Assembly: GCA_963668355.1 (NCBI GenBank)
Contig: OY764265.1
Span: 2,705,742 to 2,769,741 of the forward strand
Source: Bdellovibrionota bacterium
GTDB taxonomy: Bacteria > Bdellovibrionota_G > JALEGL01 > DATDPG01
Direction of reading: 5' to 3'
Length of the DNA stretch: 64,000 nt
Both the position numbers and the translations under genes were made by a program. The notes beneath the pieces are model-generated. The model had not been told where the DNA came from. It worked only from the letters and a program-made list of their open reading frames with translations, and did no database searches. Below, piece by piece: positions 55,889 through 63,915 of this stretch (the stretch's first letter is position 1; each line of letters opens with the position of its first letter).

Positions 55889-56395
55889 TTAAAACCTCGG
55901 ACCCCCTCTTTGAAACTGAAAAGACTTGGATTTCGGAAACCTCTTAATGTGCTTCATAATTCTCCGTATATTCTCTCCCTCAAAGAGCAAGGGCTTGGGG
56001 AAAAATAAAACGCCAGGATAAGAGGCCCGAAGTTTCCGGTCATATATAGGGTTTCCTAGCCGAGCACTTAAGACAATTACGGGCTTGTCCGGTTTCCAAG
56101 TCTTAAACCAATCTAGAAGCTTGAAACCTAAAAAGGGAGAGTCCGGGTGAAAACCGTTCTCTTCCAATTCTTTCGGGTGAAAAATCAGATCAACAAAGAC
56201 GACATCAAACAGAGCCAAATCCACATTTCCATTAAAAATGGGCTGAGGCGTCTCCAAATGAGATACGACCCAATCCTCCTGCACAAAGGCCATTGACTCA
56301 GCATTGAGGATATCGTCATCAATCACCAAAACCCGCAGACGACCCTCATCTTGACTCTCGCCACTCAAATTAAACGTCTTCAACACAGCTTTCAC
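55889..56395 (-). CDS. stand-alone receiver (REC) domain protein, paralog A
   Basis: VLVIDDD acidic pocket, candidate phospho-acceptor in DVVFVDL, then S (VLSARLG) and K (FPKP). 168 aa. Confidence 0.55.
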   Translation of the reverse strand: MKAVLKTFNLSGESQDEGRLRVLVIDDDILNAESMAFVQEDWVVSHLETPQPIFNGNVDLALFDVVFVDLIFHPKELEENGFHPDSPFLGFKLLDWFKTWKPDKPVIVLSARLGNPIYDRKLRASYPGVLFFPKPLLFEGENIRRIMKHIKRFPKSKSFQFQRGGPRF

Positions 56396-56421
56396 TTATT
56401 TCCAGCACTTAATGTGTAAAG

Positions 56422-56841
56422 TTAACTTATACGATAAATGGGCAGGGAGGTATATGAAAATCCGGGTCTTCGTTTTCGCAATACATGCGTGACCGTAAGA
56501 AGTTGAAATATTCGATAGATATTCTTTGGGTTTTGAACATGGAGATTGAACACAAACTCATGCCACAGATCCAGGCAGACCTGTTTCCAGATTCTCTCAC
56601 AAGTCAGATGATCCTCTTGGCTTGAAACACATGGAATCCAATTTTCCAAAAACACATCAAATGAGCTTCCCAAATCAAACTCATGACAAGCCCACTCCCG
56701 AACACCCGCCATACGTTTGGAAAGAAATAAACTCGAAAAAAAGTCGAAACCGCTCTCCCAATTTCGATAAAGCGAATTTCCATGAATCGAAAGAAAGAGT
56801 TCGTAAGAAGAAGGAAAAAACATATTCCAAAACGTTTCCAT
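56422..56841 (-). CDS. hypothetical protein
   Basis: 139-aa ORF in a visibly AT-richer stretch. No family recognised. Confidence 0.3.
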   Translation of the reverse strand: METFWNMFFPSSYELFLSIHGNSLYRNWESGFDFFSSLFLSKRMAGVREWACHEFDLGSSFDVFLENWIPCVSSQEDHLTCERIWKQVCLDLWHEFVFNLHVQNPKNIYRIFQLLTVTHVLRKRRPGFSYTSLPIYRIS

Positions 56842-56851
56842 AACTAAACAC

Positions 56852-61300: not shown

Positions 61301-61555
61301 ACTAACATCTTTGGAAAGAATCCATTCCCGCTCCTTTCCAAACTGTTCTTTTCCACGAAAGTCTTCAGGAATAACAACATTTGTTCCCAGAACCTCACCA
61401 GACGAAGTTGAAACTTCCCAATCGGCACTTTCCAGAGGGTCGATTGCCTTTCGCAACTCACCTTCAGAAAAAGAAAGCCAAATCCGAGGTAGAAAAAGGA
61501 AAAAAAGGACGAGCCAAAATAGGACATCAATAATTAGATTGCGTTTTTTTCTCAT
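58352..61555 (-). CDS. 7TMR-DISM hybrid sensor histidine kinase: periplasmic 7TMR-DISMED2, 7TM, HisKA-HATPase, REC, then a second HisKA-HATPase
   Basis: 1067 aa. Signal or TM1 plus a ~180-aa extracytoplasmic domain, seven hydrophobic helices, H-box SHDFKTP, G-boxes (GGSGIGL, and GTGLGL in the second core), REC with D in ILSDIMMP, and a second H-box LAHEMKNP. Confidence 0.85.
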   Translation of the reverse strand: MRKKRNLIIDVLFWLVLFFLFLPRIWLSFSEGELRKAIDPLESADWEVSTSSGEVLGTNVVIPEDFRGKEQFGKEREWILSKDVSSSKFNDVRRPVIVLGRVADSDRVFLNSCEIGSTGVSSTGSLSGWWWGALRAYEIPKNCRINKINKLEIHIWKRGANNAGLYAGPIGIGEAEVLTPIISRIEWFRFGYFRMLSVLLLGVAFYYLFVFVLLPERKEHGVFALCAGSIAVYILMISAWPFRSFGNLSLVMKIHLINAILGSVVFLTFLRVRMKAIPKWLLFTAILGGGIAGIGGVAESSFHEVYRFYEGWFSILILCFLIGYICFLRVWIKNRNLWRYGVGYSAFVFSISHDAFVTSLGLEGAPYLIPYGFFAFVGASALALAKESADAFVYVEEQVNLRTQDLKAANEELRAMDKMKQQFFANVSHDFKTPLTVALGVLNSAGEGVQEVLKPAKRNLIKLLGMIQQLLDTVRAESRGLKLKWENVKVGSALEEWVSGYDVACAQKGLSFEFRAQEVSGLLVPLDPIQMQRVIDNVLGNAIKFCDQGNIRVTIRTNMARIFFDIEDSGPGISPEERHQVFNRYYQSVATDIKSHGGSGIGLSFVKEIVELHNGQIWIEDSELGGSKFVIALPLSQNVDLVPKDSEYKLEKTDPERFAGSLDVVYPPKTPPEINAELPNVLVAEDNPDVAQVILHALQGKFNVFFGPNGKEALELLKDTKVDCILSDIMMPVMNGTEFLKAIRENSEYVRIPVIMLTSKGEDSDVTEHLKLGANDYVTKPFAQEVLVARVKGQVDRSLMFKRLSNADKLVTLGLMSTGLAHEMKNPLHSLRNHLSGVRKRLKSLHERMSQEGESFDLKAALVEAERLLNAGNTAQQGADRLSHIITSMQSYASGSIERTEINLREMVEDAFTLLRKKSKTKGVDLLLEEGPEVKIFGYAPIMQVVVNLVDNGLYATEDGGGPIQVKVSEQGTRARISVQDHGQGIPEAFLEKVFDPFESTKPAGEGTGLGLFICQDIIENLFEGEIRVESAPGRGTTFSITVPKEAPDIKGAKKFIFRGAERSMEA

Positions 61556-61782
61556 ATGCCTGCAATTTGCATGGTTTTATGTAAACACAAACTATACTTA
61601 GATTTATTTTAATTGACCGGAATTTCTCAATTTTTTGGAATATTTTGAAAGAGACCAATGTCACAAATTGGTTGAGACTTAGAGATCCCAGTCATGACTT
61701 TCCTGTTTTTTCATGCTAATGATTACAATAGGTTATCCAGTTTTTTTTTGGCACGAAACTTGGGTAAATAAAAGCACCAAAT

Positions 61783-63915
61783 ATGTCGACGGTAGAACAT
61801 AGGGACTCTCCAAGAATTTCACCAAAATCGGCTTTGAGCGCTCAAGTTTTGTTGGAATCAGGGCACCTCGTCTTAGGGGACGTTCTCAATTGTTCCAATT
61901 CGGGCTTTGGTCTCTCTATTCCTCTAACGAACAAAACTCGCAACCTGGTCCGGGGTAGATATCCCCAAAACACCCCTCAAGCAAAAATCCAGATTTATAA
62001 GGACGAGAATGTCATTCTGGACGGAATGTGCCTTATTCGACATGGATCTCTTTCCAAAAAGAAAGCAATCAATTCGGAGGACGATGCGGCTATTTTAGGC
62101 GTGAGCTTAGTCAGAAACCCTTCTCCAGATATAAACAATGTTCATTTCACTACTAAAACACCTGAAATTGATATCATTGATTCTAAGGAGAGGATAAATG
62201 AAGTCTTTGTCGACTTTTTCGGACTTGAACAGTCGGCCGCGTCTCTTCACATAGAAGGATCAAACAGTATTCAGGGGACTTTTTCATGTGATGAACTCTC
62301 AAAAACCGTTTCGAAAATCTGTTTTCAAACAAAGAATAATATTCTCGCGTCTGAAAAACCGGGGAAAAACCTTCGGTTTTCTTTTGAGATGTTCCGATCC
62401 TTCTACATCTTCGATTCGAAAATAGTAGCCAAAAGCAATAATCGTCTAGAAGTCAGAATCCCCTCTACTGTTATCAGGGTCACAAGAAGGATTACTTCTC
62501 GCGTAAGCCCTCGTGACAATGAGGTCTTTGAGCTAAGCATTGAAGACGGTTTAACGGAAAGCAGAGTGTATGGAAAAATACTTAACTTGACGGAACGAGG
62601 GTTCTCCGTACTGCTTCAGAACAAATCTCCCATCTACGCGCCAGGTTTTCATTTAAAAAACGTTAGGTTCAACCTACCAAAAGCGGAGTCCTTCACAGTA
62701 AATGCCATTGTCGTTCATTGTTCTTCAACAGATGAAGGTCTGGTGCTTCTCCAGGCTAGCCTAAATAATAATGAGCGAAAAAATTTAATGCCTTTATTTA
62801 ATTTTGTTGTCGAACGAAGATATGACACAACCAGTCAGCTAACTCGAATCCAATACGAAAAACTTTGGTTCCTTTTTGCTGACTCTGGATACACGGATCT
62901 TTGTGAGCCCGAAGCAGCCAAATTCATGAAATCGACAGCTGAATCAACCTGGAGTTCCATGGAAAAGAGCCCCGACTTACTTGCAAGAAATGTCGCTGTA
63001 GATCAGGACGGAAGAGCTTTAGCAGCAGGGCTTCACATTACGAGGATATTCTCTGATAGCTGGCTTATCCACCATCTGGCCATCCTCAAAGGACATCAAA
63101 GAACAGCCACGCCACAGCTATTCGGTGCAATGTGTGACTATCTCATACAAACAGGTGCCAAATACGTAATTTCTTATACGAAGGCCGGGGAAGCTTGGAG
63201 CGAGAAAAATTACTATGCTTTTGCTAGAGAATACCCAAGCATTGACGTCAATTTCATCGAATCCTACCAAGTGCTTCAGTTTCCTCTTTTGACAAAGAAT
63301 CAAACGTTGAGCCCTTCTACAAACATTACAATTCGAGAAGGAACCCAATGGGATAAGAAGAGAATCGCAAAGTTCCTATCTCAAACAGAATCGCCCCTAT
63401 GGCTAAAGGCTTTTGACCTTTTAGAAAACACAATCGATCTCTCCGACATCAGTTCAAAATATGAAGCCGCGGGTCTTCAGAGGAACCGAACATTTTTCAT
63501 TGCTGAAACAAACCGAAAGATGGTGGCCTTTGCGATGTGCGACATTGCTACCACTGGCGTGAATATTTGGAGTCTCACCGATAATTTCCGAGTTTTTGTA
63601 GTAGATCCCCTCCACCCTAAGCTGGAGGAAGCTAAAAGGAATCTGACAATTCAGGCATTAAACTTCTATAGAAACGCCGGAAAACCTCTAGGCCTTTGTT
63701 TTTCCAAGGATACTTCCTTCAAGTATTTAAAGGGAATCGAGTGGGTCGAGTTTGAGAAAACTTCCCTCTGGGTCACCACTGATCAAATGGTTCCCAGGTA
63801 CCGTCAATATAATGCTCAAGTCTTTGGAAGAATCATGGCAAAAACGCGAATGAGAAAAAAAGCTGCAGAAAAACGGCGAAAAATAATTGGTTCAGTCGTA
63901 GAATCAAAAAAATGA
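61783..63915 (+). CDS. tandem PilZ-domain protein with a ~400-aa C-terminal domain of unknown function (candidate c-di-GMP effector)
   Basis: PilZ 1 has RDSPR (RxxxR) and NCSNSG ((D/N)xSxxG). PilZ 2 has RITSR and NLTERG. The C-terminal half is unassigned. Confidence 0.6.
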   Translation: MSTVEHRDSPRISPKSALSAQVLLESGHLVLGDVLNCSNSGFGLSIPLTNKTRNLVRGRYPQNTPQAKIQIYKDENVILDGMCLIRHGSLSKKKAINSEDDAAILGVSLVRNPSPDINNVHFTTKTPEIDIIDSKERINEVFVDFFGLEQSAASLHIEGSNSIQGTFSCDELSKTVSKICFQTKNNILASEKPGKNLRFSFEMFRSFYIFDSKIVAKSNNRLEVRIPSTVIRVTRRITSRVSPRDNEVFELSIEDGLTESRVYGKILNLTERGFSVLLQNKSPIYAPGFHLKNVRFNLPKAESFTVNAIVVHCSSTDEGLVLLQASLNNNERKNLMPLFNFVVERRYDTTSQLTRIQYEKLWFLFADSGYTDLCEPEAAKFMKSTAESTWSSMEKSPDLLARNVAVDQDGRALAAGLHITRIFSDSWLIHHLAILKGHQRTATPQLFGAMCDYLIQTGAKYVISYTKAGEAWSEKNYYAFAREYPSIDVNFIESYQVLQFPLLTKNQTLSPSTNITIREGTQWDKKRIAKFLSQTESPLWLKAFDLLENTIDLSDISSKYEAAGLQRNRTFFIAETNRKMVAFAMCDIATTGVNIWSLTDNFRVFVVDPLHPKLEEAKRNLTIQALNFYRNAGKPLGLCFSKDTSFKYLKGIEWVEFEKTSLWVTTDQMVPRYRQYNAQVFGRIMAKTRMRKKAAEKRRKIIGSVVESKK

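Follow-up and report, generated by a model that had tools for sequence, protein, structure and literature searches.

Does a cluster of signalling genes that lie side by side at the end of a bacterial sequence work as one system, and what would its output be? This question is raised by positions 55889 to 63915 of a 64,000-nucleotide stretch of contig OY764265.1 from a Bdellovibrionota bacterium (hereafter the window, meaning the whole stretch), where one block encodes a hybrid sensor kinase, two stand-alone receivers that we call RECl-A and RECl-B, and a divergently transcribed protein of 710 amino acids (aa) with two PilZ domains. We found that the C-terminal part of the 710-aa protein is predicted to adopt a tandem GNAT acyltransferase fold, and that the genes for this protein and the kinase are neighbours in nearly all related loci that we examined. 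We therefore consider it probable that the genes of the block make up a single conserved signalling module, which receives two inputs, a phosphorelay and cyclic di-GMP (c-di-GMP). What the comparisons show is the domain content, catalytic residues, fold, paralogy and conserved gene pairing. The parts are of known kinds: the effector is PixB-like, the kinase resembles LvrA in its two cores and has a 7TMR-DISM sensor, and the receivers are divergent. The new elements are the conserved pairing of a PixB-type protein with a kinase, the tandem-GNAT assignment and the likely REC-HD-GYP origin of the receivers.

A first-pass annotation, made from the sequence alone, had placed seven open reading frames (ORFs) in the block, and all seven were found with the same coordinates and strands in the ORF listing. 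The genes and the spacer between the two largest of them are as follows.

55889-56395, minus strand: RECl-A, 168 aa, a stand-alone divergent receiver and paralog of RECl-B
56422-56841, minus strand: 139-aa ORF, an ORFan that is a gene call in the source genome; 39.8% GC (guanine plus cytosine)
56852-57304, minus strand: 150-aa ORF, an ORFan that is a gene call in the source genome
57430-57924, plus strand: 164-aa ORF, an ORFan on the strand opposite to RECl-B
57862-58377, minus strand: RECl-B, 171 aa from a GTG start, or 159 aa from M13 at 58341 (the source-genome call)
58352-61555, minus strand: hybrid sensor kinase, whole gene, 1067 aa
61556-61782, no strand: divergent control region between the kinase and PilZ-GNAT genes, 227 bp
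61783-63915, plus strand: PixB-like PilZ-GNAT protein, whole gene, 710 aa

The 710-aa protein had been described as a tandem-PilZ protein, transcribed divergently from the kinase, with a large unassigned C-terminal domain. Its two PilZ motif pairs and predicted PilZ folds, and the 227-bp spacer that separates it from the kinase, uphold the first part of this description, whereas the C-terminal domain can now be assigned. We used AlphaFold on a 102-sequence alignment to predict the structure of the protein and obtained a model with a pLDDT (predicted local distance difference test) of 94.1 and a pTM (predicted template modelling score) of 0.90; single-sequence AlphaFold had given a pLDDT of 31.5. 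When the model was compared with the PDB using Foldseek, the PilZ part matched MrkH with c-di-GMP (template modelling score, TM, 0.77), as well as YcgR, PP4397 and VCA0042, and the C-terminal part matched VipF (E = 2.8e-10), a clostridial GlcN N-acetyltransferase, MAB_4324 and N-myristoyltransferases. In the model the PilZ domains form six-stranded β-barrels like those of YcgR and MrkH, and the GNAT order of elements (β1-α1-α2-β2-4-α3-β5-α4-β6) occurs twice. On the strength of this model, we read the 710-aa protein as a PixB-type PilZ-PilZ-GNAT effector, with the following parts, delimited by secondary structure.

61783-62112, plus strand: PilZ domain 1 (aa 1-110), with canonical RDSPR (7-11) and NCSNSG (36-41) motifs
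62155-62820, plus strand: YcgR/MrkH-like unit, made of a PilZN-like domain (aa 125-226) and PilZ domain 2 (aa 227-346)
62821-63780, plus strand: tandem GNAT, made of GNAT-1 (aa 347-503, with a conserved HHLA strand) and GNAT-2 (aa 510-666)
63781-63912, plus strand: long basic C-terminal helix (aa 667-710)

The motifs of the first PilZ domain are canonical (R7-R11 and N36-x-S38-x-x-G41). Those of the second read RRITSR (235-240; R236-R240) and NLTERG (268-273; N268-x-T270-x-x-G273), with threonine in place of serine. In both domains the paired motifs are 20-30 residues apart. Neither the protein nor fragments of it matched the Pfam PilZ model (PF07238) even at E ≤ 10, and no Pfam or NCBIfam library model matched the protein as a whole. 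A word-based homolog search with it returned one distant match only, and a single-protein scan of genome contigs returned none; a separate scan of metagenomes with an alignment (A4) was likewise empty. An exhaustive HMMER search (E ≤ 1e-3) recovered at least 785 representatives of the family (50% identity level). Among sampled members, Pfam PilZ was found in 56 of 64 and Acetyltransf_1 in 5 of 64, and the PilZ match covers the region of the first PilZ domain in relatives (residues 8-89 of the family member P0008 and 15-98 of the protein from locus L007). Searched against the PDB, the family profile matched YcgR, MrkH and PP4397 over residues ~125-346 (E ~2e-10). The most conserved positions of the family include R236, R240 and G273 in the second PilZ domain and the near-invariant R567 and R569 in GNAT-2.

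The kinase had been read as an HK-REC-HK protein with two complete transmitter cores, and this is what Pfam reports: two HisKA domains, two HATPase_c domains and one Response_reg domain. Both phosphorylatable histidines and the receiver aspartate are present (H-boxes at H429 and H822, receiver D728), together with two G1 and two G2 motifs. Hydropathy analysis revealed one N-terminal helix and, across aa 190-390, six clear helices and one weaker one. The parts of the protein are as follows.

60992-61462, minus strand: extracytoplasmic sensor domain (aa 32-188), in which the motif GWWWGALRAY is conserved
60386-60988, minus strand: seven-transmembrane region (aa 190-390), from hydropathy and from PF07695 through orthologs
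59648-60301, minus strand: kinase core 1 (aa 419-636), with H-box SHDFKTPL (H429), G1 at 568 and G2 at 598
59180-59515, minus strand: internal receiver (aa 681-792), with E685/D686, D728, T758 and K780
58415-59128, minus strand: kinase core 2 (aa 810-1047), with H-box AHEMKNPL (H822), G1 at 981 and G2 at 1005

The sensor had been assigned to the 7TMR-DISM type with a 7TMR-DISMED2 domain. The first assignment stands only by way of relatives: the window kinase had no Pfam 7TMR-DISM match at E ≤ 10, but PF07695 passes its gathering score of 29 bits in kinases of related loci (L003, 42.2 bits, E = 1.2e-10; L004, 57.9 bits, E = 1.7e-15; L002, 36.4 bits, E = 6.6e-9; L007, 40.4 bits, E = 3.9e-10), and 7TMR-DISM_7TM is also listed for the kinases of L009 and L011. 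We could not sustain the second, as PF07696 (7TMR-DISMED2) had no match at E ≤ 10 in the kinases of the window and of L002-L005 and is absent from the domain listings of the L007, L009 and L011 kinases. A profile search of the PDB with the extracytoplasmic domain was uninformative, and a word-based homolog search with the kinase N-terminus returned no match.

A second kinase core after the receiver had been called uncommon, a view that the literature contradicts. LvrA and LvrB define a class of 'Rec-controlled histidine kinases', in which phosphorylation of the receiver frees the catalytic domains, and the class is described as frequent (PMC5863495, PMC13269768). A two-core layout is therefore no rarity. 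The top NCBIfam model for the window kinase is indeed LvrA (NF047465; E = 3.6e-85), although its 286.6 bits are so far under the cut-off of 1200 that the kinase is not an LvrA ortholog. The half that comprises the receiver and core 2 is collinear with the LvrB structure 8vc9 (residues 46-380 versus 44-381, E = 1.7e-17); no other part of the kinase gives a collinear alignment to an entire PDB chain.

The link between the two large proteins comes from the genes that surround their relatives. In seven of the eight loci that we reached through the PilZ-GNAT protein (L002, L003, L004, L005, L008, L009/L010 and L011), a gene for a kinase of this type is adjacent to the PilZ-GNAT gene or one gene away, and the pairing holds too in L007, which we reached through the kinase sensor domain. 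The arrangements are listed here.

L003 (through PilZ-GNAT; closest relative, 43% identity): divergent kinase, 41.6% identical over its full length, and a RECl ORF
L005 and L009/L010 (through PilZ-GNAT): HK-REC-HK ortholog next on the same strand
L007 (through the kinase sensor domain): PilZ-GNAT, then HK-REC-HK ortholog on the same strand
L002 and L011 (through PilZ-GNAT): PilZ-GNAT, then a shorter 7TMR-DISM kinase with a single core like core 2
L004 (through PilZ-GNAT): PilZ-GNAT overlaps the start of a 7TMR-DISM protein, where the contig ends
L008 (through PilZ-GNAT): a methyltransferase between, then a kinase
L001 (through PilZ-GNAT; distant member): neighbouring GAF-HD-GYP-PilZ protein

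Full-length orthologs of the kinase are 41.6% (L003), 40% (L005), 37% (L009), 35% (L006), 32% (L007) and 32% (L011) identical to it. The pairing recurs at 40-59% GC and 22-43% protein identity and in divergent as well as tandem, even overlapping, gene orders. This conservation bears out the earlier suggestion that the parts of the block form a functional unit. Other genes attend the pair: an ICMT/PEMT-type membrane methyltransferase gene adjoins it in five loci (L002, 14354-15067; L003, 8289-8828; L005, 7175-7819; L007, 13126-13785; L009, 7184-7849) and a FadL-type porin gene in L002, L005 and L011. A class I S-adenosylmethionine-dependent methyltransferase is found in L001, L003 and L008, and one member of the PilZ-GNAT family has such a domain fused to it.

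The order of genes in L008 is the same as that of pixB-MXAN_2605-MXAN_2606 in Myxococcus xanthus, in which pixB (MXAN_2604) is 'possibly in an operon with two downstream genes' (PMC8316039). MXAN_2606 has been termed 'an uncharacterized orphan hybrid HK-RR-HK', and transposon-insertion mutants of this gene had altered developmental fitness in a pooled screen (bioRxiv 10.64898/2026.08.28.747804). Among the papers searched, none links PixB to this kinase.

The short 7TMR-DISM kinases whose genes adjoin PilZ-GNAT genes (L002, 12265-14403, 712 aa; L011, 10304-12523, 739 aa) have a sole core that resembles core 2 of the window kinase and not core 1, and L011 carries both the long and the short form. 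As this single core resembles core 2, the long form may have arisen by insertion of a cassette consisting of core 1 and the receiver.

RECl-A and RECl-B had been described as paralogous receivers, and they are 41% identical over 151 aa (E = 3e-43). Their predicted catalytic residues are D26/D27, D69, S110 and K134 in RECl-A and D37/D38, D80, S121 and K145 in RECl-B. A third member of the group is an uncalled ORF directly downstream of the L003 kinase ortholog, in the same place as RECl-B. We aligned a profile of these three proteins with hhalign to canonical receivers, for which we used CheY, Spo0F, PhoB and NtrC together with the kinases' own receivers, and obtained a probability of 77.5% (E = 1.9e-5). 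The acidic pair, the acceptor aspartate, the P/G of the β3-α3 loop, the S/T and the K-P are in register with the canonical receivers.

When we searched all ORFs of the loci examined with a hidden Markov model of the three RECl proteins, the best outside match was the receiver of a REC-HD-GYP protein in L009/L010 (E = 2.4e-7; 44% identity over 36 aa, E = 1e-7), which outranked the kinases' internal receivers. This regulator, whose domains are assigned by Pfam, is encoded directly downstream of the kinase ortholog. The RECl proteins thus likely descend from a cognate REC-HD-GYP regulator through loss of the phosphodiesterase domain and fast divergence, and RECl-A would be a later duplicate.

Several observations weigh against a single module with two inputs. 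The block contains no HD-GYP or GGDEF gene, so a link from the kinase to c-di-GMP is not visible in it. The RECl proteins have a shortened α2 region and an insertion of ~11 residues after the phospho-acceptor aspartate, and they could on this account be pseudo-receivers. The coenzyme A (CoA) loop of GNAT-1 in the window subgroup, GHQRTAT, does not follow the Q/RxxGxG/A pattern of motif A, the pyrophosphate loop between β4 and α3, and catalysis is therefore uncertain. Within the module as found in the window, the kinase is the one protein whose score clears a curated Pfam or NCBIfam threshold. L001, which holds a distant member of the PilZ-GNAT family, has no kinase in its 7.3-kb contig. Finally, the membership of PixB in the family is argued from matching architecture, motif spacing and neighbourhood. 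We considered four rival explanations in turn.

The rival that survives best, although we find it doubtful, is that RECl-A and RECl-B are degenerate pseudo-receiver adaptors or decaying remnants of a REC-HD-GYP protein and are not phosphorylated. Besides the altered surroundings of the acceptor aspartate, their scores of 13.2 and 13.0 bits against the Pfam Response_reg model (PF00072; cut-off 30.2) would fit this explanation, as would the outcome of a word-based search of 5.8 billion proteins with RECl-B, which found only RECl-B itself, and the confinement of clear similarity to outside relatives to the N-terminal third. However, all five catalytic positions (the two acidic residues, the acceptor aspartate, the S/T and the lysine) are kept in RECl-A, RECl-B and the L003 protein at a pairwise identity of only 23-41%, which argues for selection on phosphorylation chemistry, and the codon usage of the genes is normal.

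It is also possible to see the tandem GNAT as catalytically dead and the 710-aa protein as a c-di-GMP-dependent scaffold that would bind the kinase and regulate it, much as YcgR binds the flagellar motor. This explanation draws on the lack of a Pfam GNAT match in the window protein, on the CoA loop of GNAT-1 (HHLAILKGHQRTATP), a variant of motif A, on GNAT-2, which has DPLHPK at the loop position and no GxG, and on the PixB study, which demonstrates no enzymatic activity (PMC8316039). We judge it unlikely, given that conservation across the family is highest in the GNAT region, that P0008 passes the Acetyltransf_1 threshold over its GNAT-1 equivalent (25.7 versus 20.7 bits, E = 1.5e-5), and that the acetyltransferase region of PixB is by itself necessary and sufficient for its growth-phase function (PMC8316039).

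We regard as equally improbable the explanation that the phosphorelay and the PilZ-GNAT protein have nothing to do with each other beyond being encoded side by side. No direct biochemical link joins them, a distant relative (L001) shows no kinase in its contig, and the two genes are divergently transcribed here and so do not form a single operon. Against independence stands the recurrence of the pairing across the range of base composition, protein identity and gene order described above, and its presence in M. xanthus as well.

The first-pass annotation had noted by eye that the block is richer in AT than its surroundings, and had taken this to fit acquisition as a unit. The AT-richness is real but modest, the block having 44.0% GC compared to 48.0% for the rest of the window, the lowest value among all 8.1-kb windows. 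The 710-aa gene (42.3%), the 139-aa ORF (39.8%) and the spacers account for the decrease; GC is inside the range of other window genes for the kinase (46.2%), RECl-B (46.5%) and RECl-A (44.4%). With a codon score for which the remaining 47 window genes served as training set (mean 0.191, standard deviation 0.063, minimum 0.055), the kinase (0.206), RECl-B (0.206) and RECl-A (0.144) behave as ordinary host genes, and the 710-aa gene (0.040) and the 139-aa ORF (0.007) fall below the minimum. The kinase and PilZ-GNAT genes are also 0.8-5.7 GC points under their surroundings in L002, L003, L005 and L007 (40-59% GC), and the module therefore tracks host GC.

We found no tRNA gene, direct or inverted repeat, integrase or transposase at the borders of the block, and housekeeping genes (nadD, mtaB, rnc, der and pepA) abut it directly upstream, with the convergent nadD stopping 2 bp from the RECl-A stop codon. 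Judged by the features of a genomic island, the block deviates only modestly in composition, with the kinase not deviating, and the nearest relative that we identified carries the module too. With host-typical codon usage in the kinase and RECl-B and no marks of mobility, acquisition as a unit is unsupported. A recently acquired genomic island is thus very unlikely, even though the low GC, the atypical codon scores of the PilZ-GNAT gene and the 139-aa ORF, and the singleton status of all three small ORFs would speak for one. At most, the segment 55889-57861, with the three ORFans and RECl-A, is lineage-specific, as it is absent from L003, the closest related locus.

Returning to the module that we favour, we infer from these comparisons in which direction phosphoryl groups flow, each transfer step, that c-di-GMP is bound, that the effector is enzymatically active and how the branches connect, as follows. 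A signal would reach the extracytoplasmic sensor and the 7TMR-DISM-type seven-helix bundle, upon which core 1 would autophosphorylate at H429 and transfer the phosphoryl group to the kinase's own receiver at D728. The phosphorylated receiver would release core 2, as in LvrB-type 'Rec-controlled' kinases, allowing H822 to autophosphorylate and core 2 to pass its phosphoryl group to RECl-B (D80) and probably also to RECl-A (D69). In the other branch, c-di-GMP would bind the PilZ domains, chiefly the YcgR-like PilZN-PilZ2 unit, and switch a tandem-GNAT acyltransferase that modifies a target.

How the branches meet may be seen in L009/L010, where the kinase is predicted to act on the REC-HD-GYP phosphodiesterase, which would lower c-di-GMP and thereby inform the PilZ-GNAT reader. 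As this phosphodiesterase follows the kinase in L009/L010, the comparison suggests that the kinase originally set the level of c-di-GMP read by the PilZ-GNAT protein. In the window and in L003, the regulator would have been reduced to a stand-alone, fast-diverged receiver, duplicated in the window genome, and coupling would therefore have to rely on contacts between proteins or on a different enzyme. A gene 7 kb upstream of the block (47375-48862, plus strand) encodes a 495-aa protein that has an HD_5 (HD-GYP-type) domain. Its GYP motif reads KSYP and its N-terminal 230 aa have no assignment; the protein may be a c-di-GMP phosphodiesterase and could supply the HD-GYP output that the block lacks.

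A broader proposal, which we put forward tentatively and hold to be possible rather than probable, is that the PixB family is the output arm of an unrecognised, widespread module in which a 7TMR-DISM HK-REC-HK kinase and c-di-GMP jointly control a tandem GNAT, attended by an ICMT-like methyltransferase and often a FadL porin, and that a REC-HD-GYP regulator has here evolved into a new class of stand-alone receiver that couples the kinase to the acyltransferase by contact. The ICMT-like methyltransferase and the FadL porin would suggest that the module senses or modifies a compound that is hydrophobic or belongs to the envelope. If the proposal is true, MXAN_2606 would be the partner of M. xanthus PixB and mark its pathway. 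As PixB is the only studied PilZ-GNAT protein, the conserved pairing offers a concrete and testable partner kinase, and the L009/L010 regulator suggests a simple circuit that runs from signal to kinase, c-di-GMP hydrolysis and a PilZ-gated acyltransferase. For the window alone the result is modest, namely parts of known kinds and a C-terminal domain that now has an assignment.

The control of these genes can be sketched in part. The RECl-B gene is immediately downstream of the kinase gene and is probably co-transcribed with it. In the divergent spacer, a sigma-54-like -24/-12 site, TGGCACGAAACTTGG, lies at 61749-61763 on the plus strand, 20 nt upstream of the PilZ-GNAT ATG; it is the sole sigma-54-like match across the 64-kb window, where 0.18 would be expected by chance. 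At the aligned position L003 has TGTCACGCCTTTTGCG, and no gene for an enhancer-binding protein is visible within the block. We treat the site as a weak lead to a candidate promoter of the PilZ-GNAT gene. The window ends 85 bp beyond the 710-aa gene, short of the place at which L003 has its ICMT-like gene.

The three small ORFs between the receivers (139, 150 and 164 aa), noted in the first-pass annotation, are each called in the source genome, and all are singleton clusters. None has a Pfam, NCBIfam or PHROGs match, the 164-aa ORF also has none in the PDB, and none is similar to sequences of the window or of the loci examined. Their codon scores are intermediate to poor. That of the 139-aa ORF (0.007) is borderline, and this ORF is possibly not a real gene; the 164-aa ORF scores 0.101. 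An overlapping frame at 56844-57095 has a better codon score over the 3' half of the 150-aa ORF, which suggests a miscall or frameshift. The 164-aa ORF, on the plus strand, overlaps the 3' end of RECl-B convergently by 63 bp (57862-57924), and a sigma-70-like site lies ahead of it at 57317-57346. The stretch that separates the receivers was checked for decayed kinase or PilZ sequence and is no such copy.

Elsewhere in the window, the nadD ORF (55203-55886, plus strand) is over-extended as listed. The match to the NadD model begins near residue 55, and the true start is therefore probably the methionine at about 55362. A 1729-aa ORF at 34290-39479 (minus strand) has no Pfam match at E ≤ 1e-3 and is closely followed, on its downstream side, by a tRNA-Val gene (34147-34221). 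Three consecutive small ORFs of 169, 159 and 169 aa at 42525-43967 (minus strand) have no Pfam match, and a 481-aa ORF at 50502-51947 (plus strand) has no Pfam or NCBIfam match. AT skew is unusually strong at 30001-31000 (0.378) and 25001-26000 (0.248), within the genes at 29251-31614 and 25062-25880, respectively.

Each part of the block can be set beside a known system. The RECl proteins recall RpfG-type REC-HD-GYP regulators, as outside their own group RECl-A, RECl-B and the L003 protein are most closely related to the receiver of the L009/L010 regulator; they differ in having no HD-GYP domain, in the insertion after the acceptor aspartate and in falling under the Pfam receiver threshold. 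The kinase shares with 7TMR-DISM sensor kinases, such as RetS of Pseudomonas aeruginosa, an N-terminal signal anchor, an extracytoplasmic domain of ~155 aa and seven transmembrane helices before the transmitter. Unlike these kinases, its extracytoplasmic domain matches neither DISMED1 nor DISMED2, and the window protein itself stays under Pfam detection while its orthologs match PF07695. With LvrA and LvrB it has in common the HK-REC-HK order, two phosphorylatable histidines and one aspartate, LvrA as the best NCBIfam model and the collinearity of the REC-core 2 half with the LvrB structure. LvrA is cytoplasmic with a PAS domain, whereas the window kinase has one plus seven transmembrane helices, an extracytoplasmic domain and no PAS, and its downstream partners differ from those of LvrA and LvrB.

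Within the 710-aa protein, residues ~125-346 match YcgR, MrkH and PP4397 by both profile and fold, but the unit lies between an extra N-terminal PilZ domain and an enzyme-like output instead of acting alone on the motor or on DNA. The two consecutive GNAT folds resemble those of Legionella VipF, the Clostridium acetobutylicum GlcN N-acetyltransferase, Mycobacterium abscessus MAB_4324 and N-myristoyltransferases (Foldseek E-values of 2.8e-10 to 1e-7), at identities of 9-14% and target-normalised TM values of 0.4-0.55 from which no shared substrate is inferable; none of these proteins is fused to PilZ.

The closest counterpart of the whole effector is PixB, which has two PilZ domains and a GNAT acetyltransferase domain and binds c-di-GMP in vitro (PMC8316039). 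Its function requires the acetyltransferase region, development requires both PilZ motifs, and the R331A substitution in its second PilZ domain is more severe than R121A (PMC8316039). The first-pass annotation had proposed an uncharacterised c-di-GMP-controlled function for the 710-aa protein; with PixB partly characterised, that function is not wholly uncharacterised. The window protein lacks the ~110-aa N-terminal extension of PixB, its kinase gene is divergent and adjacent whereas MXAN_2606 lies two genes downstream, stand-alone receivers are present in the window, and the PixB paper mentions neither a tandem GNAT nor a PilZN domain. The likenesses begin with the order PilZ-PilZ-GNAT. The two RxxxR motifs are spaced 229 aa apart in the window protein and 210 aa apart in PixB, the second-motif serine is not conserved in the second PilZ domain, and the GNAT region starts ~110 aa past the second RxxxR, compared to an acetyltransferase deletion at residue 451 in PixB. 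Peptides derived from the PixB primers (LRESERR at R121 and HRRNSL at R331), together with this deletion, fit ~800-aa members of the family. In both systems, of the two c-di-GMP sites, the one in the second PilZ domain matters more or is better conserved, and an HK-RR-HK kinase is encoded close by.

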